DNA of 63,901 nt, the filler included. It is 9 parts of 9 records of this genome, joined end to end, with 100 filler letters (N's around TTAATTAATTAA, not from the genome) between each part and the next. Parts side by side here need not be neighbours in the genome. Positions count along the whole stretch, not along the records: positions 36,979 to 42,238 come from SRR31156797_83194; 8 more parts are not named here. One strand, given 5' to 3'. The notes under the pieces are model-generated. The model had not been told where the DNA came from. It did no database searches and saw only the letters and a list, made by a program, of their open reading frames with translations. The position numbers and the translations under genes are program-made. Position 1 is the stretch's first letter. Every line of letters starts with the position of its first letter. Below, piece after piece: positions 3,095 to 59,374 of this stretch.

Positions 3095-5866
3095 ATGCAC
3101 ACAAGATCGCTGACCGTCATCGTGGCCGTGCTGGTAATGGCGCAGGCCGTTACGGCCAAGGAAGCGCACTGGATCGAAGGAGAGGATTATACGAGTTCCT
3201 CCTTCAACCGGCACGGCTGGTATCAGAGCACGAATATCGGCAAGGCCCTGCTCTCGCCCGGTCAGCCGGGCGTCTCCGAGGGCGACTGGCACGTCCACTT
3301 CGGTGACAACGAGGCAACGGCAACCTATCGCTTCGAGATCGCCGAGGGCGGGACGTACACCTGGTGGATCAGGCTCAATCCCTTCCGCAATCAGAGCGGT
3401 GGCGGCAATTACAGCTATCGACACAAGTCGGTGCGCGGTTCCTGGTCGTCGTGGGAAGCGCTGGACGTCTCCGAGGCCCGCGATCGCATGATCGACCTGG
3501 TCGACCCGGGGATCGACATTCGCTTCATCGCCTGGTGCCATGGGGGCGCGTTCGCCTTCTCACGCGGAACGTACGAACTGCAAGTGCGCCTCTCGCTGGG
3601 TGCGGGGGATCAAGATAACCACGGCGGGATCGATGTCATGGCGCTGACGAACTTCCCCTGGTCTCCCACCGGGGTGATTCGGCCGCAGACCGACGCGCCG
3701 GACCCTGAGCCTGACGAGTGGTTCACCCTGATGGTCGGGCCCGATCCACTCTCGGCCGACTCGATCATCGACATGAGCGATCTGCTCGACAAACCGGCCG
3801 GCATGCACGGATTCCTGAAATCGGCCGGCAAGGATTTTGCGTTTGCCGATGGCACGCCGGTGCGGTTCTGGGGAATCGGCGCTTCCATGACCGAAACCGT
3901 CGAGGCCCAACAGCGACAGGCGCGTTTCTATGCCAAACACGGCATCAACATGGTGCGCCAGCATCCGGTCGAAAGCGTACTCGGCTCGTTGCAGGGCGGT
4001 CCGCAGCAGCGTCACTTCGACGCCGAGAAACTCGACAAATTCGACCGTTGGTTCAGCATCCTCAAAGAGAACGGTATCTATATGACGTGGTCGATCTTCT
4101 ACCATCACGTGGCGCTGCCCGATCAGGGAATCGATCCCGACCTGTACAACGAACTGCCCAGCCGCGGCGCCGGCAGAGACACCTACGGGATGGCCACCTT
4201 CATCGAAGAATATCAAGACTCCCAGTGGCAGTACGCCCGCCTGTTGCTCAATCATGTCAATCCCTATACGGGACTCGCCTACAAAGACGATCCGGCACTG
4301 GCCCTGGTGGAGGCACGCAATGAGGACAGCGTCTTCTTCCATAACCCGCTGGGCGAGTCGTTCGTTCGGGGCCAGTCCCATCCGCACCACGCCGCTCGGC
4401 TCAAGCAGATGTGGCAGCAGTGGGTCAAGAACCGATATGGCAACGACCAGGCGCTGGCAAGCGCGTGGGGGACGGGTCGGCGCACGACCACGACGCAGAA
4501 CAGTGATGGCTCCGTGCGCAGCCGGCCCGATTCGGTGAACGAAACCAACATGTACATCTACGCGGCCTGGGAGATGGAGGCCGAAGGCCCACACTGGAAC
4601 ACCAATGCCGAGCGGAAACGCATGGGCGATTTCATCCGCTTCCTGGCCGAGATGCAGCGCAGGACCTACGCCACCTACGAGCAGCGTCTGCGCGACTTGG
4701 GCTACGACGCCGTGGTGGTCAGCACGGCCTGGAAGGCGGGCGGATCGGCCGCGTCGGCGGCCAATCTCTGGACCGACGACGCGGGCGACGCCATCGACCG
4801 GCACAACTATTCCGGTGGCGGTGCGGGCGGCCACGGCATCACCACGGGCTCGGTCAGCAACGACACCCATTTGCGCCGGGCCGGGCGCGGGATTCTCTCC
4901 AGCGGCCTGTGGCAGGTGGAGGATAAGCCCTTCATCATGACCGAATGGACACAGAAACCACCCAACCAGTGGAAGGCGGAAATCGCGCCACTGGTGGCGT
5001 TCTATGGCATGGGCTTGCAGGGCTGGGATGGGTCCTATCACTTCGTCGGCTCACGCAGCTACATGGGCAACGGCTGGCCCAGCATGAGTTCCTACGTGAC
5101 CGAGACACCTCACTACATCGGTCAGTTCCCGGCGCTGGCTTGCGCGACCTACCAGGGCCATTTCACCGAGGGTCCGCCGGCCGCAGCGAGACGATTGTCC
5201 ACGGACGCCGCCTTCTCCGGAACGGACGCGCTGGGAGAGACGCAGGGCCGGGAAGGGTACGACGAGAACGACCTGCTCGGTCAGGGCGATACCCCCGTCG
5301 AGGCGCTGGCCGTCGGGCGCGTGACACTCAAGATCGCCGATGGGCAGGTGCCCTCGTACCAACCTTCACTGTCCGATTGGTGGAATCCGCGTTTGCAGGT
5401 GGTGCGCAGCAATACGGGGCAACTCGTCTGGGACTATGCCAAGCAGGTGGTTCTGGTGCAATCGGAAAAGACCCAGGGTGTCATCGGCTTTGCGGCCGGC
5501 CAATCGTACGACCTTCCCGGCGCGATCATCGAAGACGTCGATACGCCCTTTGTCAGTCTGTTGCTAACGCCCCTGGACAATCGCCCCCTGATCGAATCGA
5601 CCCATATCTTGATCACGGCATTGGCCCGCGACAAGCAATATGGCACCGTCTACAATGAAGACGGCACGGAACTGCGCGACACAGGCGGCCCCCCCCTGCT
5701 GCTCGAACCGGTCCAGGCAACGATCGTTCTCAAAGGCGCACCGATCACGTCCGCCCGAGCGGTCGACGTCTACGGCGTGCCGACCGACCGCCAACTCGAA
5801 CGCACCGGCAACACCATCCGCATCGACGGCCGCTATGCAACGTACTACTACGAAGTGAATCGGTAA
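3095..5866 (+). CDS. Secreted clan GH-A glycoside hydrolase (GH5/GH148-like) with an N-terminal beta-sandwich/CBM-like domain
   Basis: Signal peptide; FADGTPVRFWG, GINMVR, HVNPYTGLAYKDDPA, acid/base RNED, nucleophile FIMTEW. Confidence 0.75.
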   Translation: MHTRSLTVIVAVLVMAQAVTAKEAHWIEGEDYTSSSFNRHGWYQSTNIGKALLSPGQPGVSEGDWHVHFGDNEATATYRFEIAEGGTYTWWIRLNPFRNQSGGGNYSYRHKSVRGSWSSWEALDVSEARDRMIDLVDPGIDIRFIAWCHGGAFAFSRGTYELQVRLSLGAGDQDNHGGIDVMALTNFPWSPTGVIRPQTDAPDPEPDEWFTLMVGPDPLSADSIIDMSDLLDKPAGMHGFLKSAGKDFAFADGTPVRFWGIGASMTETVEAQQRQARFYAKHGINMVRQHPVESVLGSLQGGPQQRHFDAEKLDKFDRWFSILKENGIYMTWSIFYHHVALPDQGIDPDLYNELPSRGAGRDTYGMATFIEEYQDSQWQYARLLLNHVNPYTGLAYKDDPALALVEARNEDSVFFHNPLGESFVRGQSHPHHAARLKQMWQQWVKNRYGNDQALASAWGTGRRTTTTQNSDGSVRSRPDSVNETNMYIYAAWEMEAEGPHWNTNAERKRMGDFIRFLAEMQRRTYATYEQRLRDLGYDAVVVSTAWKAGGSAASAANLWTDDAGDAIDRHNYSGGGAGGHGITTGSVSNDTHLRRAGRGILSSGLWQVEDKPFIMTEWTQKPPNQWKAEIAPLVAFYGMGLQGWDGSYHFVGSRSYMGNGWPSMSSYVTETPHYIGQFPALACATYQGHFTEGPPAAARRLSTDAAFSGTDALGETQGREGYDENDLLGQGDTPVEALAVGRVTLKIADGQVPSYQPSLSDWWNPRLQVVRSNTGQLVWDYAKQVVLVQSEKTQGVIGFAAGQSYDLPGAIIEDVDTPFVSLLLTPLDNRPLIESTHILITALARDKQYGTVYNEDGTELRDTGGPPLLLEPVQATIVLKGAPITSARAVDVYGVPTDRQLERTGNTIRIDGRYATYYYEVNR

Positions 5867-37195: not shown

Positions 37196-38750
37196 CTATA
37201 CTTTGAACTTGCTTACGATGGTAATCAGCTCGGCGGCCAATTCATTGAGGTTTTCCGCACTCAATTTCACCTGGCCGCTGCCGTTTGATATTTCGCCGGC
37301 TTGTGAATTGACCAGGGTGATATCCTGGGATATTTCGCCCGCCACAACGGCAAATCCTTTGCCTGCCTCTCCGGCACGGGCCGCTTCAATGGTTGCATTC
37401 AAAGCAAGCAGGTTGGTCTGTTCGGAAATATCATTGATCACTTCCGTTACCTTGGTAATGGCAAGGGCGGTTTTGCCAAGCTCCGACATTTTGCCGGAGG
37501 CGCTCCTGGCCTTGTCCACGGCTTCATCTGAAATACGCCTTGCCGTTTCCGTATTTTTGGCGATCTCATCAATGGTGGAAGTCATCTCTTCCGAGGCGGC
37601 CGCCACCATGGTTGTGTTGGTGGAAGATTCCTCCATGGCCGCCGCCACATTGTTGAGGTTGGTGGTCATCTCTTCCGTGGCCGTTGCCACGGCATTGGCC
37701 CGGCCCGCCGTGTTTTCAGCCCCTGAAGACATCTGGGCCGCAATGACCAGAAGCCCGGAGGAGGCGTCATCAAGCATTTTGGCGTCATCCCCGATCTGCC
37801 TGATCAATCCCTGGAGTTTTTCAATAAACGTGTTGAACCAGGTGGCAAGCTGTCCGATTTCATCTTTTGTGTTTACGGGAAGACGCATGGTGAGATCGCC
37901 TTCTCCTTCGGCAATATCCTTCAGGCCCGCAACCGCATTCTTGATGGGGTTGACAATGGTGCCGGACATGAAGAAAATGGCGAACCCGGCCAGCAGTACC
38001 GATATGAACCCGATAAGGATGCAGGAGTAGATGATGTCCCTGGCGTCTTCCAGTACTTTTGCCATGGGAATTTCAACGGAAAAGGACCAGGGAGTATCGG
38101 CATTGCCGATGTAGGTGGGTACAAAAATCCGGTAGATATCTGTTTCCAGGGTTTCAGAGTGGGAGGTCATTGTGAAGCTATTGCCGGATTTTATGGCTTG
38201 TTTCGCTGATCTCAGGAGCTGGGTATCTCCTATGTCCTTGTTTATTTTTCCTTTGTCCGGATATGCCACATATTTTCCCTCGTTGGAAATCAGACTGGCC
38301 AGACCGGTACCATAGGGCCTGATCTTTTTTACCATTTCCGTCAGTTCTTCCAGCACGAGATCGATCCCGATAACACCGATGCATCGGTTGTCATGGATGA
38401 TGGGGACTGCGGCGGTGGTCATCATGATATGAATCGTGGGATCCTCATAGGGTTCGAGCAGGACCTCCTTTTTAAGCTTTTTCGGTAGTGCATAGTATGA
38501 ATTGAGTATGGATTCCTGATACGCTTTCAAGTCCGTGGTCGGCTCGGATACGATGGTGCTTCCTTTCCGGTAGAACCATGGCGCATAGAGGGTTTCAAAG
38601 ATGGTCTCCGGATCCACCATCACCCAGATGCCTGAAAATGGTCATTCTTTTCCACAATCCGCCGTAAAGAGATATCAAGCAGTTCCCGGTCCGGTTGTTT
38701 CCCGGCCATGGCGGCCATAAGCGCCTGGATGACGTGACCGTATTGCCCCA
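37196..38750 (-). pseudogene. Methyl-accepting chemotaxis protein (dCache-HAMP-MA), apparently decayed
   Basis: [27 protein letters not shown] present; frameshift near 38636, TM1 missing, signalling domain shortened. Confidence 0.7.
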
Positions 38751-38916
38751 TGAAGCCGATCATCGTATTTCACCCGTTTTTGGTTGGGAACTGACGAAAA
38801 TTTTAACCATTTCCCCAAGGGATTGTCAATCTCTAATGATGGTTGCGGCAGCAATGGGGCCCGGCTGCAACCGTCCGGTTGAAATGACGCCCCTTTTTTA
38901 CGTGGTCAAAAATGGG

Positions 38917-39807
38917 TCAAGGCTGATTTGCAATGATATCTTCGGATATCTCCATGAATTGCTTCAACAGGGGGGAGCACCATTTCTCAGCGTGCCAGAT
39001 CATGATAACGGATGTTTCAACATCCGGTTCGTCCCACTTCAACCGTACCAGGCGTCTATCGGACAGTTCCTCCCGGACCGATATCTCCGGGCAGACCGTA
39101 ACTCCGATCCCTTTTTTTAAACAGCCGTGCAGGCTGTTCCTGCTTGAAAATTCGAGTATCCTTGGCTTGCTTCCTTGTTCTTCGAGCGACCGCTCGAATG
39201 CCCTTCGATAACTTCAGTCCGTTTTGAGAAACAGAAAGGTTTCGCCGTCCAGGTCCTTCAGGCGGATTTTTTCCCGGTCCGCGAGGGGGTGTGCAGGGCT
39301 TGAAACGAGAATCAGGTGTTCTGTTTTCAGCATCTGAATGTTGACATCCTTAAAATGAATGGCGTCCGTCATCAAGAAAGCCAGATCGATACGGCCGGAA
39401 TTGAGTTCCTCCCTGAGTTGAACGTCCGAGCAGTTGATGAATATCAGTTTCACTTCCGGGTGCTGTTTGTGAAAGCGCTCCACAACCCCGGGCATATATA
39501 TGGTCGCAAGGGTCTCAGGAATACGGACGGTGAGACTGCCCCGGGCATATTCACTGCCCGTGACCTCCGACCGGATTTCCCGGGTCATGTCCTCCATTCG
39601 CCGGGCGTATTCATAGAGCTTCCGGCCCGGGTCCGTGAGGAGCACCCGGCGTCCGATGCGGTCAAAGAGTTTTACCTCAAGGGTTTCTTCAAGTGCCCGT
39701 ATCTGGGCGGATACGGATGACTGGGCCATGAACAGCTGTTCCGCCGTCCTGGTGAAACTCAGGTTGTCCGCCACGGCCCGGAATGTTTTTAACTGGCGCA
39801 ATTCCAT
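38917..39807 (-). CDS. LysR family regulator, 296 aa, with in-frame UGA at codon 198 (candidate selenocysteine)
   Basis: HTH (SFTRTAEQLFMAQSSVS); frame stays open after TGA 39216-39214 (SYRRAFE...GIGVTVCP...WHAEKWCSP) to 38917; SECIS-like hairpin follows. Confidence 0.85.
39181..39198 (-). promoter_or_regulatory. Putative bacterial SECIS element
   Basis: UUCGAGC-GGUC-GCUCGAA stem-loop starting 16 nt after the UGA. Confidence 0.65.
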
Positions 39808-39821
39808 ATTTTTTTCTTCCT

Positions 39822-39836
39822 ATCGTTGTTTCCGAT
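39822..39836. promoter_or_regulatory. LysR-type operator (T-N11-A)
   Basis: ATCG-TTGTTTC-CGAT palindrome just upstream of the lysR start. Confidence 0.6.
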
Positions 39837-39883
39837 GGGTTGCTTCGGTTTTACATGATAAAATACGTTAGGTTTTCAACAAG

Positions 39884-41122
39884 TTACATCGATCTCTCTT
39901 TTTTGTGTGCAGAAATATGCATTTTTCGGTCAGATCCCGTCAATGCATCCTCCAAACCTTCCCGCCCTTCACCTGGAATCCAGTGTCCGTAAATATCGAT
40001 TGTCGTCTGAATCTTGCTGTGACCCAGTTGCCGTTGTATATATGCTGGGCTCGTGTGGGCCATCAACAAAATGGTGGCATAGGTGTGTCTTAGATCATGA
40101 GGGTTTCGGATCCTTAAACCTGCCGCTTTGCATACTTTCATCATCGTTCTCTGGACTTTTATCTGACTTACCGGCCAGGGAGGATCTACTGGGTCAAGAA
40201 ACAAATGATCGATTTCTCCACCATCCCCGTTTAACAAGCTCTCTTTTTTTAAATGTGTCACATAACTCTTGAGCTCTTCCGCCAGAAAATTAGGAAGGTC
40301 CACAAAGCGCTTTTTCCCACGCTTTGGGGTTCCAAATCTGTGTTGCCTGAAGCTTCTACAGACATAATAATTCATTCTATGCAAATCCAAGTACTGGATT
40401 TGCATAGCTAACGTTTCACCCAATCGCATTCCGGTAAATGCCATGACCCGCAAAATAACTGTTTCTCGCCATGAGCAGATATTTGTCGCTGCCTTAAGGA
40501 ACAAATCTCGGTCATTTATATCAAAAGGATCAGCGTCTTTGACGTTACGTTGACCAATTGGTGGAAGGATTTTTTTCATCAAACTAGATGCTGGATTAGA
40601 ATCAATATACTTGTCGTCAATGGCCTCGTTGAAGATTGAGGTCAATATAGTATGTGCTGAATTGACCATTGACGGAGAGCGGGTTTTTAGCAAGGCACGG
40701 AGTCGTTTTTTTACGGTCACCCGGCTTATTCCATCTAAAGCTCCACTAAATTCATCAAACGGCCAGATATGCAAACGGAGAATACCCTCGTACTTCTCAT
40801 ATGTAAGCACATCCCACTGTCCACGATTATTTTCCAACCACTCCTCGCTGTATTCACGGAACATGACGACTGGCTCCTCCGGCTTTGGCTGTTCGAAACC
40901 CTGAGGCAGATCCTCTAATTTTTTTGCAACTACTTCCGCGGCCTTGATGGCCTTTATAAAATTTTCTCGGCCCTCGCCAACGGTCGTGTTGCTTCTCTGT
41001 CCCTTCGCATTAACGAAAATCGTCCATTTTTTACGGGCGTCACATCGGACCTGTACTCCTGTTCTGATCTTGTAAATTTTCCCATGTTTCCCTTCAGTTG
41101 CTTTATATTTGCGCCAAGGCAC
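39884..41122 (-). CDS. int: Prophage tyrosine integrase
   Basis: TGMRLGE, HDLRHTYA, LGHSKIQTTIDIY; AGGAGG RBS before GTG at 41122. Confidence 0.93.
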   Translation of the reverse strand: MPWRKYKATEGKHGKIYKIRTGVQVRCDARKKWTIFVNAKGQRSNTTVGEGRENFIKAIKAAEVVAKKLEDLPQGFEQPKPEEPVVMFREYSEEWLENNRGQWDVLTYEKYEGILRLHIWPFDEFSGALDGISRVTVKKRLRALLKTRSPSMVNSAHTILTSIFNEAIDDKYIDSNPASSLMKKILPPIGQRNVKDADPFDINDRDLFLKAATNICSWRETVILRVMAFTGMRLGETLAMQIQYLDLHRMNYYVCRSFRQHRFGTPKRGKKRFVDLPNFLAEELKSYVTHLKKESLLNGDGGEIDHLFLDPVDPPWPVSQIKVQRTMMKVCKAAGLRIRNPHDLRHTYATILLMAHTSPAYIQRQLGHSKIQTTIDIYGHWIPGEGREGLEDALTGSDRKMHISAHKKERSM

Positions 41123-41189
41123 ATCTACCTCCTTTCGAAACCCAGGCCACATATGCACAGCGCAAGGGTAGGATAATCCCGCTTAAAAC

Positions 41190-41438
41190 TCAACAGGTCA
41201 CGCCAACTTTTTCGAGGGCATCCTTCACCAGGTTTCCAATATCGTCCGGACTGTCAGAGGTGGGAGCTACAACCACCTGCCGAAAATTATCCCTGAACCA
41301 CTTGTCATATTCATCTGGATTAACAAGGATCTTTCGGCCCACCCGGTAATGGGGCATCCCCTTTTTTAAGAATCGCCTCAACGTTCCCACGCAAAATTTT
41401 TTTTCAACGGAAAGTTCTTTTAAATCCATATATTCCAT
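41190..41438 (-). CDS. Excisionase-like HTH protein
   Basis: Small winged HTH (GMPHYRVGRKILV...DKW) directly upstream of the integrase. Confidence 0.8.
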   Translation of the reverse strand: MEYMDLKELSVEKKFCVGTLRRFLKKGMPHYRVGRKILVNPDEYDKWFRDNFRQVVVAPTSDSPDDIGNLVKDALEKVGVTC

Positions 41439-41451
41439 ATCTGTTCCTTTC

Positions 41452-41721
41452 TTAAAACGCTTCCTCGAACAACTCTTTCTGAACTTCATCTTTCTCGTGT
41501 CTCTCATCAAAAACGGCCTGGTCCATGGCCACAATTGCACACATGGCCCTCACTGCATATTGCCCACGTTCAAGTCGGGTGCCGTCAGCGATCAGCAGGG
41601 CCTTGTCCGGATGGTATTCGATCCGGCATGCAAACTCCCTTTCTATCCGCTGAACCGAACCGGGCCCGGTGAACTGGATGGCTTCTACCGGGGCACCGGT
41701 GTCTTTGTTTATGTATTTCAT
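41452..41721 (-). CDS. Small phage hypothetical protein
   Basis: VEAIQFTG motif typical of small phage proteins; tightly packed. Confidence 0.65.
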   Translation of the reverse strand: MKYINKDTGAPVEAIQFTGPGSVQRIEREFACRIEYHPDKALLIADGTRLERGQYAVRAMCAIVAMDQAVFDERHEKDEVQKELFEEAF

Positions 41722-58518: not shown

Positions 58519-58618
58519 NNNNNNNNNNNNNNNNNNNNNNNNNNNNNNNNNNNNNNNNNNNNTTAATTAATTAANNNNNNNNNNNNNNNNNNNNNNNNNN
58601 NNNNNNNNNNNNNNNNNN

Positions 58619-59374
58619 CAGGTCAATATCAGCATAAATGACTCCAGGCTTGTCACTGGCACAGGCAACAATAGTCCCCCAGGGATCAACAACAAGGCTG
58701 TTGCCGTATGCGACAAAGCGGGTTTTCTTACCGATCTGGCCCGCGGAAACGATATAACAGCCATTCTCAATAGCCCGGGTCTGGAGGATGGGTTTCCAAT
58801 GATCCTTACCGGTAGGCATAGTAAAACTGGCAGGAGTGAAGATGACCTGGGCTCCTTCAAGGGCCATCAGGCGGTATATTTCAGGGAAACGGATATCATA
58901 ACAAATGGACATTCCCAGTTTGCCAAGAGCCGTATCAACAGTGGCAATGGAATCTCCGGGATGAATTCTTTCAGATTCATCACAAACAGTTCCGTCAGGA
59001 AGGGTTACGTCAAAGGTATGAAGCTTTCTGTAAGTTGAGATGATCTTACCATCGGGATCGATGATGACAGAAGTATTATAGGCTCTGGTTTCGCCGGGTA
59101 TCTCCTCGGTAAAACTGCCGCTGTGAATATAGACACCATACTCTTTTGCCTTAGCACAGAGGATTTCTGTGGTATAGCCGGGTATAGTCTCTGCTTTCCC
59201 CCCCTCTCCCTGGTTCTCACCCACTAGATTCATGACTTCGGGAAAACTGACCAGCTTTACTCCGGCCGACACCGCTTCATCAATACAGCGGCAGGCTGTA
59301 TTCAGATTCTCCGGTTTGTTGTTCTGAGAATCCATTTGCACTACGGCAACTTTGTATTTTCTAAGTTTTTCCAC
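58619..59374 (-). CDS. Carbon-nitrogen hydrolase (Nit/deaminated glutathione amidase-like), 3' truncated
   Basis: FPE, YRKLH.FD, ICYDIRFPE, RAIEN. Confidence 0.92.

Follow-up and report, generated by a model that had tools for sequence, protein, structure and literature searches.

The window, by which is meant the whole 63,901-nucleotide stretch of DNA that was analysed (filler included), contains on its minus strand a gene that most likely encodes a full-length LysR-type DNA-binding regulator (LTTR), in which an apparent premature stop would specify selenocysteine (Sec) within the sensing pocket. On comparison with its relatives it is highly probable that this is one gene, that its product is a 296-residue LysR-type regulator and that this product is a selenoprotein. 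The best explanation overall, a Sec-containing LysR regulator, can be put forward with good confidence. The reading given in the earlier note holds, and the refuting conditions that it set, checked in related genomes and public contigs, all came out on the side of Sec.

Gene and protein domains

The open reading frame starts with an ATG at position 39807 and extends for 197 codons before it meets a TGA at 39216-39214, as the earlier note had described. Past this triplet the same frame continues for 98 more sense codons up to a terminal TGA at 38919-38917, to give a coding sequence at 38920..39807 (minus strand) and a protein of 296 amino acids when UGA codon 198 is read as Sec. The residue context at the in-frame TGA is FLKTD-U-SYRRAFE. 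The normal-length LysR proposed earlier is therefore recovered, with a Pfam domain that spans the TGA.

The N-terminal region forms a winged helix-turn-helix DNA-binding domain (residues 3-62, 39622..39801, minus strand; PF00126 HTH_1, E 1.1e-21), which is followed by a LysR effector-binding domain (residues 88-287, 38947..39546, minus strand; PF03466, E 3.6e-45, profile positions 4-203 of 209). The Pfam LysR_substrate match to this second domain runs across the TGA, so that in annotation the UGA codon interrupts the domain, and the distal 98 amino acids searched alone match positions 115-203 of the same profile (E 1.5e-15). An AlphaFold2 model gives a confident full-length LTTR fold (pLDDT 88.3) with the distal part included, and places the helices of the helix-turn-helix at residues 3-15, 18-24 and 29-43. 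Foldseek with this model returned full-length LTTR structures, with E values down to 7.6e-28, and CcmR, ACIAD0746, CysB, OxyR and BenM are among the matches. The features that define an LTTR, namely the HTH_1 and LysR_substrate domains, a length of about 300 amino acids and the LTTR fold, are all found in the 296-residue protein.

Conservation of the in-frame TGA

A set of 80 related loci was compared, of which 32 have TGA and 48 have Cys at column 198. The 32 TGA-form loci, each from a different species-level genome, together with the window gene make up a set of 33 genes, and in 33/33 of these the codon at this column (39214..39216, minus strand, in the window) is TGA and never TAA or TAG. 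The carriers of the 32 other TGA-form genes belong to the Desulfobacterales, Desulfovibrionaceae, Desulfocapsaceae and SAR324. The terminal stops of TGA-form genes are TAA in 18 cases, TAG in 5 and TGA in 9.

At column 198 the 48 remaining loci have cysteine, as do all 16 database homologues, full-length or partial, that reach across it, the contexts being TDC(S/R)YR or TDCGY, which bears out the suggestion that related LysRs carry a (G)CSYR motif in which the UGA replaces Cys. The Cys codon is TGC in 19 and TGT in 4 of the 23 Cys-form loci that were counted. In an alignment of 71 sequences residue 198 (Cys or Sec) and Y200 are invariant and C126 is nearly so, with all 39 Cys forms in the alignment having Cys at column 198. 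A quick IQ-TREE tree nests the Cys forms in the same clade as the Sec forms. The search for TGA or Cys homologues at this column thus returned both, and the gene displays a conserved in-frame UGA, a conserved open frame beyond it and Cys homologues at the UGA column, as looked for in a selenoprotein.

Over the 33 genes the ratio of non-synonymous to synonymous polymorphism (pN/pS) comes to 0.31 before the TGA and 0.44 after it, and between the window gene and that of L001, the locus of the nearest genome, the values are 0.11 and 0.15. Judged by these ratios, purifying selection acts on the distal 98 codons. No restart codon after the TGA is conserved, since the first candidate start lies anywhere from 5 to 58 codons downstream across the 33 genes. 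A separately translated C-terminal half, as would be made from a split gene, was considered and rejected, the possible starts being unconserved and, in the window gene, the first of them being 58 codons away.

Among the best 120 database matches, 104 are confined to the first 66% of the protein; most of these are exactly 197 amino acids in length, with 68-93% identity. These 104 entries are proteins cut at UGA codon 198. It had been anticipated that standard gene callers would split the gene in two; they instead truncate it to 197 amino acids, because the distal part is without a usable start.

An assembly error does not account for the TGA at 39216-39214. From the likely source run, an independent public contig shows the identical sequence across the triplet, and a relative of about 91% identity from another study has no listed difference over positions 39178 to 39219. 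The concern that the site might be TGC or TGT is met by the public contigs, which read TGA.

The SECIS-like hairpin

A SECIS-like hairpin is found at 39181..39198 (minus strand), where positions 39198-39192 pair with 39187-39181 to form a 7-bp stem capped by an apical GGUC loop at 39191-39188. The spacer between the TGA and the hairpin is 15 nt (39199-39213), and the perfect stem starts at the 16th nucleotide, in agreement with the stem, loop and distance first noticed in the sequence.

In every one of the 33 genes the hairpin is gapless and sits at the same distance from the TGA, starting 16 nt on. Over this set 98.7% of stem cells are paired, against 31-48% in slid controls, and an RNAalifold consensus predicts the same 7-bp stem. 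Double compensatory changes are seen in 2 of the 7 pairs, 18 one-sided changes keep the pairing, and the apical loop is GGUC in 30/33 genes. The codons of the hairpin specify a conserved peptide as well, FERSLE, and part of the nucleotide conservation is, on this alignment, driven by the protein. Protein conservation as the whole cause is nevertheless disfavoured by a synonymous-site test and its Cys-form control: in the TGA forms the synonymous-pair difference is 0.155 over the hairpin codons versus 0.585 gene-wide, the second lowest of 323 windows, whereas in the Cys forms the corresponding values are 0.565 and 0.601.

A single-sequence fold of 76 nt compared with shuffles gives a z of -0.35, such that the hairpin is not significant alone; it is the comparative evidence, from alignment of the 33 genes, that puts it far beyond chance. 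The hairpin conservation that was to be checked is hence borne out in position, covariation and suppressed synonymous change, and a selected stem-loop with a conserved apical loop, as sought in a selenoprotein gene, follows shortly after the UGA. Rfam returned nothing at gathering threshold in the window, and a permissive scan of 39100-39260 gave only a chance-level match to Rothia-sucC (E 8). The SECIS of selD in four related genomes (G002-G005) likewise follows a 15-nt spacer and has a loop that opens with GG. In the K-12 record of E. coli fdhF the UGA is codon 140 and the SECIS apical loop is GGUC, just as the earlier note had stated.

The selenocysteine decoding machinery

Five genomes that carry the TGA form were searched for the Sec machinery, and tRNA-Sec, SelA, SelB and SelD were all above cut-off in 5/5. 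The SelD of each of these genomes itself has one in-frame TGA and is Sec-containing. The window contains no tRNA, tRNA-Sec or sel gene, and the case for Sec decoding in its organism would rest on relatives, the nearest being the L001 genome, with a LysR of 86% identity. More than 500 kb separate the LysR gene from selA, selB, selD and tRNA-Sec in G004, a complete genome, and no sel gene is found among the recurrent neighbours within 5.5 kb of the regulator over the 33 loci.

A second selenoprotein gene was also sought in the window. Of 55 frame segments with one internal TGA, eight were run through Pfam; four of these have a domain that ends before the TGA and four have no match, and no convincing candidate emerged.

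Position of the probable selenocysteine within the regulator

A profile alignment pairs U198 with H198 of OxyR, directly before the peroxide-sensing Cys199. It had been proposed that the UGA lies in about the same loop as Cys199; the region is indeed the same, but the residue is one earlier. The alignment also pairs T99, D128 and R201 of the LysR with T100, T129 and R201 of OxyR. According to the available portion of one study (PMC7231847), the peroxide pocket of PaOxyR is formed by T100, T129, H198 and C199, and the same text describes a DFT calculation in which a Sec variant of the OxyR pocket was modelled. The model of the LysR suggests that the Sec caps the N-terminus of a helix (199-210) within the cleft where the regulatory domain would bind its effector. 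The protein does not have the cysteines that characterise OxyR, as the C199 and C208 columns hold Ser199 and Leu208, and it scores 111 bits with the NCBIfam OxyR model NF008361 against a cut-off of 329.

The divergent partner gene and the putative operator

The gene for the regulator is usually accompanied by a divergent partner. Of the 31 Sec-form loci that could be assessed, 24 have a PF09719 (C_GCAxxG_C_C) protein as this partner, and four more (L012, L013, L017 and L030) have a CMD-family CxxU selenoprotein in which the CxxU spans its own TGA. Most of the Sec-form partners (24/31 assessable) carry Cys and not Sec. The same kind of partner is present in 16 of the 48 Cys-form loci, and neighbours other than the redox partner recur in five or fewer of the 33 loci. 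At L001 a TehB-like methyltransferase sits between the regulator and the partner.

An alignment of the 130 nt upstream of 32 genes reveals conserved ATCG-N7-CGAT boxes in the shared promoter region, within the pattern ATCG..TC.AACGATTTAT....CGAT.......ATCG.......CGAT. On this alignment, boxes of the T-N11-A type, as looked for in the divergent promoter region of an LTTR, appear upstream of 31 related genes. In the window the proximal box, a putative operator of this LTTR type, is found at 39822..39836 (minus strand), just upstream of the ribosome-binding site.

Of the conserved array the window keeps only the proximal box intact, and homology to L001 ends at 39848. The partner gene and the distal operator boxes are missing, with an integrase-bearing segment in their place, and a tblastn search of the window for the usual partner gave weak matches only (best E 0.008 at 5045-5260). 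The window's gene and hairpin are intact and, on the sequence comparisons, under purifying selection. The likely target of the regulator, as suggested by gene order, is the small thiol/selenol redox protein that is its usual divergent neighbour, the redox role of both partner families being an annotation only ('putative redox-active').

Proposed mechanism and alternative explanations

The mechanism envisaged is that UGA198 would be decoded as Sec by SelB and Sec-tRNA, recruited by the intragenic 7-bp hairpin with its GGUC loop 16 nt after the UGA, and that Sec would thereby replace the ancestral, invariant Cys at position 198. Oxidation or another covalent modification of the selenol may then switch a tetramer bound at the ATCG-N7-CGAT boxes; the selenol could become a selenenic acid, join a neighbouring Cys (C126, for instance) in a selenenyl-sulfide, or take up a per- or polysulfide adduct. 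What this switch would regulate is the divergent small redox protein, mostly C_GCAxxG_C_C but in some genomes an AhpD/CMD-type CxxU selenoprotein. That the selenol is the sensor residue, and that its modification switches the DNA-bound regulator, is held at even odds. We infer that redox state, a metal or selenium is what is sensed, in keeping with the original suggestion, and the neighbouring genes favour redox.

Selenium may alternatively act through its supply. Any Sec-UGA ties synthesis to selenium by virtue of SelB-dependent decoding, and the full-length regulator might be made only when Sec-tRNA is available, with a 197-residue fragment (the DNA-binding domain and half of the regulatory one) or nothing made otherwise and the regulon tracking selenium status, as HrsM/LysR_Se does by other means. 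Such a switch is compatible with a chemical role of the selenol and may add to it. Some of the partners, the CMD CxxU proteins of L012, L013, L017 and L030, are themselves selenoproteins and would suit such control, but 24 of the 31 assessable partners carry Cys instead. Likewise, LysR_Sec_metab, at 158 bits, ranks in the top three of the named NCBIfam families, yet in G004 the gene is over 500 kb distant from selA, selB, selD and tRNA-Sec. The accessible parts of two papers tabulate PF09719 as a selenoprotein family (PMC9312934) and describe selenium-responsive LysR regulators (PMC5322559). Against this, Cys is invariant in the 39 Cys forms and the same kind of partner occurs in 16/48 Cys-form loci, which indicates that the chemical role of residue 198 predates the UGA. 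As the main explanation, control by selenium supply is considered unlikely.

A ligand sensor is also conceivable, in which the selenolate of the cleft coordinates a soft metal or metalloid (Hg, As, Cu or Cd) or reacts with sulfide, polysulfide or selenide. The OxyR pocket alignment places position 198 in the classical LTTR effector cleft, and the hosts are, by their record names, sulfide-rich sulfate reducers. The available text of a 2026 review (PMC13188914) links several predicted selenoproteins of the transport type to resistance against metals or metalloids, and the TehB-like methyltransferase of L001 would be in keeping with such a role. However, the genes conserved next to the regulator include neither a transporter nor a metal-resistance gene, non-partner neighbours recurring in at most 5/33 loci, and the conserved partners are thiol/selenol proteins rather than efflux or reductase systems. 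This reading is regarded as quite doubtful.

Read-through of the UGA without Sec, by a near-cognate Trp or Cys or under a reassigned code, is very improbable. Leaky read-through of UGA does exist in bacteria, but no direct sign of it turned up here, and a position-fixed hairpin with selD-like geometry and the full Sec machinery in 5/5 genomes fit SelB-dependent decoding. Moreover, Sec and Cys are paired at one invariant column, which is a recognised selenoprotein signature. The code is not reassigned, because TGA is also the terminal stop in 9/32 of the same genes. Finally, the idea of a true stop, with a decaying pseudogene or a deliberately short 197-residue regulator and an untranslated frame downstream, is scarcely credible, for although gene callers and GenBank annotate 197-residue proteins and the hairpin is not significant on one sequence (z -0.35), the column is fixed and always TGA in 33/33 species-level genomes, the 98 codons are open in all, the distal codons complete a domain and are under purifying selection, and the Cys forms are nested in the clade.

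The preferred account of a selenol-bearing LysR can be extended to a joint reading. The protein would represent the first natural Sec-sensing transcription factor, a widespread family of Desulfobacterota (at least 32 species-level genomes and about 100 database clusters), in which selenium supply gates the full-length regulator whilst the selenol, in an OxyR-like pocket, reports oxidants or reactive sulfur/selenium species faster than Cys and controls a Sec/Cys redox-defence module in strict anaerobes. This combined scheme is tentative and falls somewhat short of an even chance.

Significance

To our knowledge, prokaryotic selenoproteins are almost all redox enzymes, enzymes of selenium metabolism or proteins associated with transport. 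With a DNA-binding regulator that has Sec in the sensing pocket, selenium biology would reach transcriptional signalling. As Sec and Cys forms occur in one clade, the family offers a direct test of what is gained with Sec, be it rate, reversibility or resistance to over-oxidation. The roughly 100 database entries of 197 amino acids are truncated annotations that a family model marking the Sec position would mend, and the finding also opens a way into the unknown C_GCAxxG_C_C proteins and supplies a defined operator motif for work on sulfate reducers.

This kind of selenoprotein was found in none of the papers searched, within the text of each that was available, and the databases record the truncated protein. 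The selenoprotein family tables of reviews from 2022 and 2026 (PMC9312934, PMC13188914), in their accessible portions, list neither a LysR nor any other DNA-binding regulator. Nor does a Sec-containing LysR appear in the available portions of the literature searched, including PMC9312934, PMC13188914, PMC8318568 and PMC1976440, a scope that leaves aside supplementary selenoprotein tables and subscription-only papers, either of which could hold an earlier mention. No NCBIfam model claims the 296-residue LysR.

Comparison with known systems

The two partner families, C_GCAxxG_C_C (PF09719/TIGR01909) and AhpD/CMD (PF02627), both have known Sec members and are conserved alongside the regulator. 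They are its presumed targets and not its kin, and neither adjoins the window gene.

The regulator LysR_Se/HrsM, represented by NF040786 ('selenium metabolism-associated LysR family transcriptional regulator', LysR_Sec_metab), is likewise a LysR tied to selenium biology, and in the genomes tested the present protein occurs in Sec-decoding organisms only. In contrast, LysR_Se/HrsM is described, in the accessible text of Lin et al. 2015 (PMC5322559), as sensing selenium status and not as containing Sec. The window protein reaches 158 bits against the NF040786 cut-off of 250, with L034 at 131 and P0018 at 139, and the gene does not adjoin selA, selB or selD, either within 5.5 kb at the 33 loci or in G004.

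OxyR shares with the regulator its fold and domain order, a reactive chalcogen residue that starts the same cleft helix, aligned pocket residues and a divergent pairing with a small redox gene. The two differ in that the reactive residue of the LysR lies one column earlier (at H198 and not C199) and is Sec rather than Cys, with Leu in place of the partner Cys at the C208 column, and in that the hosts are anaerobic sulfate reducers.

The selenoprotein genes fdhF and selD resemble the LysR gene in that an in-frame UGA stands where homologues have Cys and is soon followed by a hairpin with a G-rich loop, the GGUC loop being shared with fdhF and the 15-nt spacer with the selD of G002-G005. Unlike their products, the LysR is a predicted DNA-binding regulator and not an oxidoreductase, a transporter or an enzyme of selenium metabolism.

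Reading frame and domains

The gene lies on the minus strand, where a reading frame runs for 197 codons from an ATG at 39807 to a TGA at 39216–39214, beyond which it stays open for a further 98 sense codons before a terminal TGA at 38919–38917. Read-through gives a protein of 296 amino acids with the TGA in the context FLKTD-U-SYRRAFE, and across all 33 TGA-form genes (the window gene and 32 related loci) the read-through lengths are 291–315 amino acids. A Pfam HTH_1 domain occupies residues 3–62 (E 1.1e-21) and a LysR_substrate domain spans the TGA at residues 88–287, covering profile positions 4–203 of 209 (E 3.6e-45); searched alone, the distal 98 residues match positions 115–203 of the same Pfam profile (E 1.5e-15). 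The AlphaFold2 model, built with a 71-row alignment, shows the whole chain as one LysR-type regulator (LTTR) with a mean pLDDT of 88.3 and a pTM of 0.74, and Foldseek matches it to full-length LTTR structures that include CcmR, ACIAD0746, CysB, OxyR and BenM. The frame, its TGA, the open continuation and a following 7-bp stem with a GGUC loop had all been described in an earlier note, and every element is found where it had been placed.

Over 38700–39900 the sequence recurs unchanged in an independently assembled contig of the likely source run, and a contig of another study, about 91% identical, has no listed difference over 39178–39219, the segment that holds the hairpin, the spacer and the TGA. 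Public contigs of two origins therefore keep TGA at this codon, with neither TGC nor TGT in its place, and the codon does not stem from an error in sequencing. Several further contigs of that source run agree with the window only at 38952–39008, 39178–39226 and 39703–39732, with 3–10 differences; these three short pieces include the TGA-hairpin segment, and the contigs may represent further paralogues or relatives of the regulator in the same sample.

Nor is the distal piece a separate gene, since a conserved restart codon was sought after the TGA in the 33 genes and none was found; the distance from the TGA to the first ATG, GTG or TTG ranges over 5–58 codons in the set and is 58 in the window. 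Over the 33 genes, mean pN/pS is 0.31 before the TGA and 0.44 after it, and between the window gene and L001, its nearest relative, the values are 0.11 and 0.15. From these sequence comparisons the distal part is predicted to be translated.

The hairpin downstream of the TGA

Fifteen nucleotides beyond the TGA, positions 39198–39192 of the minus strand pair with 39187–39181 in a perfect 7-bp stem, closed by a GGUC loop at 39191–39188. As a single sequence the hairpin does not fold better than shuffles (z −0.35), so its meaning rests on comparison. A 63-nt alignment around the TGA runs without gaps through 33/33 genes, and hence the 15-nt spacer is fixed. Pairing holds in 98.7% of the stem's 231 cells (33 genes by 7 pairs), with double compensatory changes at two of the seven pairs (4 cells), one-sided changes that retain pairing in 18 cells, and 3 unpaired cells, all at the basal pair. 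When the 3' arm was slid by 1–3 columns as a control, pairing fell to 31–48%. The covariation score was reached by none of 500 column shuffles, and an unguided RNAalifold prediction gives the same stem. Thirty of the 33 genes have GGUC as the loop, with GGUU, AGUU and AGGU found once each.

Because the stem codons also encode F-E-R-S-L-E, synonymous change was measured over the six hairpin codons, as the share of codons that differ where two sequences have the same residue. In the TGA forms the synonymous difference is 0.155 over the hairpin against 0.585 gene-wide, with only one of 323 sliding windows lower, whereas in the Cys forms the values are 0.565 and 0.601 (rank 72 of 323). Such suppression in the TGA forms, set beside a near gene-wide level in the Cys forms, points to a nucleotide constraint only where the TGA exists. 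The hairpin is thus conserved, and appears to be an RNA element that goes with the TGA.

Distribution of the TGA and cysteine forms

Among the best 120 hits of a protein-collection search, 104 cover no more than the first 66% of the query; the majority of these are exactly 197 amino acids long, with 68–93% identity and a terminal ...KTD, and they stem from many independent assemblies. When one genome per prokaryotic species was scanned, 80 related loci emerged, and column 198 is an in-frame stop in 32 of them (L001–L030, L033 and L034). This stop is TGA in every case, so that the TGA is far from unique to the window. The carriers include Desulfobacteraceae, Desulfosarcinaceae, Desulfocapsaceae, Desulfovibrionaceae and one SAR324 bin, among others. 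The terminal stops of 32 TGA-form genes are TAA in 18, TAG in 5 and TGA in 9, and one gene leaves its contig. The proposal that UGA replaces a cysteine is borne out by the remaining 48 loci, all of which have Cys at column 198, and by all 16 longer hits among the best 120, which read TDCSYRK or TDCRYRK; in the 23 Cys-form loci aligned by codon, the cysteine codon is TGC 19 times and TGT 4 times.

In a tree of 71 sequences, from a quick maximum-likelihood run, one fully supported clade holds all 32 Sec forms together with 10 Cys forms, and its sister clade of 29 sequences has Cys throughout. The Sec and Cys labels need four changes on this tree, at least two of them forced by strongly supported branches. 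The pattern looks like the usual exchange of Sec and Cys at a functional residue, with a direction that is not readable from the midpoint root.

Selenocysteine machinery

No tRNA genes, Rfam matches or sel genes were found within the 63,901-nt window. All four Sec components are present in each of the five TGA-form genomes examined (those of L001, L005, L011, L034 and L029), with tRNA-Sec at 72–80 bits (gathering score 47), SelB at 364–380 (cut-off 242), SelA at 605–628 (cut-off 268) and SelD at 330–375 (cut-off 125), the last with one in-frame TGA in each genome. G002, a related Desulfobacterota genome, has a second tRNA-Sec-like gene (51.5 bits, barely above the cut-off) with another selB-like gene (301 bits) immediately behind it at G002:C8:755709-757727, in addition to a canonical tRNA-Sec and selB elsewhere; this may be a duplicated or variant Sec-decoding pair.

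The TGA/Cys column, the hairpin and the Sec machinery in 5/5 relatives support the overall reading of the gene as a selenocysteine-containing LysR, and selenocysteine at codon 198 is very probable.

Divergent partner and predicted operator

At 24 of 31 assessable Sec-form loci (L007, which starts too near its contig end, was left out) the divergent upstream gene encodes a protein of 144–178 amino acids of the Pfam family C_GCAxxG_C_C, a 'putative redox-active protein' (E-values 1e-19 to 2e-30). The gap between the end of this partner and the regulator start is 102–195 bp in 22 of the 24, the exceptions being L029 (17 bp) and L001 (1.9 kb, where about 115 bp is usual). In L001 the two genes are separated by a TehB-like SAM methyltransferase and by a 4HBT thioesterase (L001:4220-5416). 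The same arrangement occurs in 16/48 Cys-form loci. Small unclassified proteins take the divergent position in L008, L011 and L018.

In four further loci the divergent gene encodes a CMD/AhpD-family protein of 86–96 amino acids (minus strand; L012:5627-5884, L013:5602-5862, L017:5602-5859 and L030:5615-5902). Each has its own TGA within a G-C-Y-P-U motif, which marks these partners as predicted CxxU selenoproteins, and here a selenoprotein regulator would be paired with a putative selenoprotein target. Three of the four neighbouring LysRs have U-NYPK after the Sec, not U-SYRR.

An array of ATCG-N7-CGAT boxes is conserved in the shared promoter region of all 31 related genes aligned, with about three boxes, ~130 nt upstream of the LysR starts (L001–L034). 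We take this to be the T-N11-A type of LTTR operator, and the array offers a ready motif for binding studies.

In the window, homology with L001 is limited to 39848–38713. Beyond 39848 the usual upstream region has given way to the 3' end of a gene for a tyrosine integrase (39884–41158, minus strand, 424 aa, PF00589), with 76 nt between this end and the LysR start; next comes a 116-aa ORF without a Pfam match (to 41540). Together these (39884–41540) occupy the site held in related genomes by the divergent partner and distal boxes, both of which are missing from the window, and this suggests insertion of a mobile element or a rearrangement at the regulator's promoter. The proximal box (39822–39836) is retained, and the LysR gene itself is intact and constrained, as judged by pN/pS against L001. 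Directly downstream is a methyl-accepting chemotaxis protein gene (37196–38623, minus strand; dCache, HAMP and MCPsignal), a relative of which, 57% identical over 231 aa, lies farther off in L001. A run of N at ~58574–58620 of the window (X in translation) marks a scaffold gap.

Residue 198 and the likely signal

In the AlphaFold2 model residue 198 is at a helix N-cap, between strand 190–194 and helix 199–210. Neither C/U198 nor Y200 varies among the 71 sequences, and C126 and C229 are nearly invariant. Profile alignment to the OxyR of the annotated E. coli K-12 record gives a probability of 99.9 and no gaps over residues 160–218; it pairs U198 with His198, S199 with Cys199, R201 with Arg201, T99 with Thr100 and D128 with Thr129. 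Thr100, Thr129, His198 and Cys199 are described as forming the peroxide pocket in OxyR of P. aeruginosa (PMC7231847), so the Sec would sit within the pocket, right next to the peroxidatic Cys column. The earlier note had put the site in about the same loop as Cys199, which holds to within one residue, the Sec falling one residue earlier, in the His198 column.

The regulator would bind the ATCG-N7-CGAT boxes and control a small thiol or selenol redox protein. A switch that follows selenium supply and the sensing of a ligand or metal(loid) are rival functions; the redox-protein partner and the OxyR-like pocket position favour a putative sensor of redox state or reactive species. Selenol-based redox sensing in particular is given an even chance.

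Comparison with known systems

Its two domains, its fold and its type of operator place the protein in the LTTR superfamily, and no NCBIfam model reaches its cut-off on it. OxyR membership is rejected, with a model score of 111 against a cut-off of 329 and neither OxyR Cys column being Cys, the Cys208 column holding Leu. The LysR_Se/LysR_Sec_metab family is likewise rejected (158 bits against 250), and no sel gene lies near the regulator; LysR_Se/HrsM is a regulator of selenium-related genes, not described as a selenoprotein in the parts of the sources consulted (PMC5322559; PMC9312934). Term searches of the 2022 and 2026 selenoprotein reviews, in text and family tables alike, brought up no LysR or other DNA-binding regulator, the sole regulatory entry there being the FmdB zinc-ribbon family. 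No Sec-containing LysR was found in the searchable open literature; an earlier listing may exist in supplementary selenoprotein lists or subscription papers.

The gene shows all the sequence-level features of a bacterial selenoprotein gene, and would be a SECIS-type selenoprotein gene with a transcription regulator as its product. Its hairpin resembles the SECIS of selD in four related genomes, taken as a positive control, which follows a Sec-UGA with the same 15-nt spacer and has a stem with a GG-initiated loop, and it shares the apical GGUC of E. coli fdhF (UGA at codon 140), a likeness pointed out in the earlier note and found in the fdhF gene itself.
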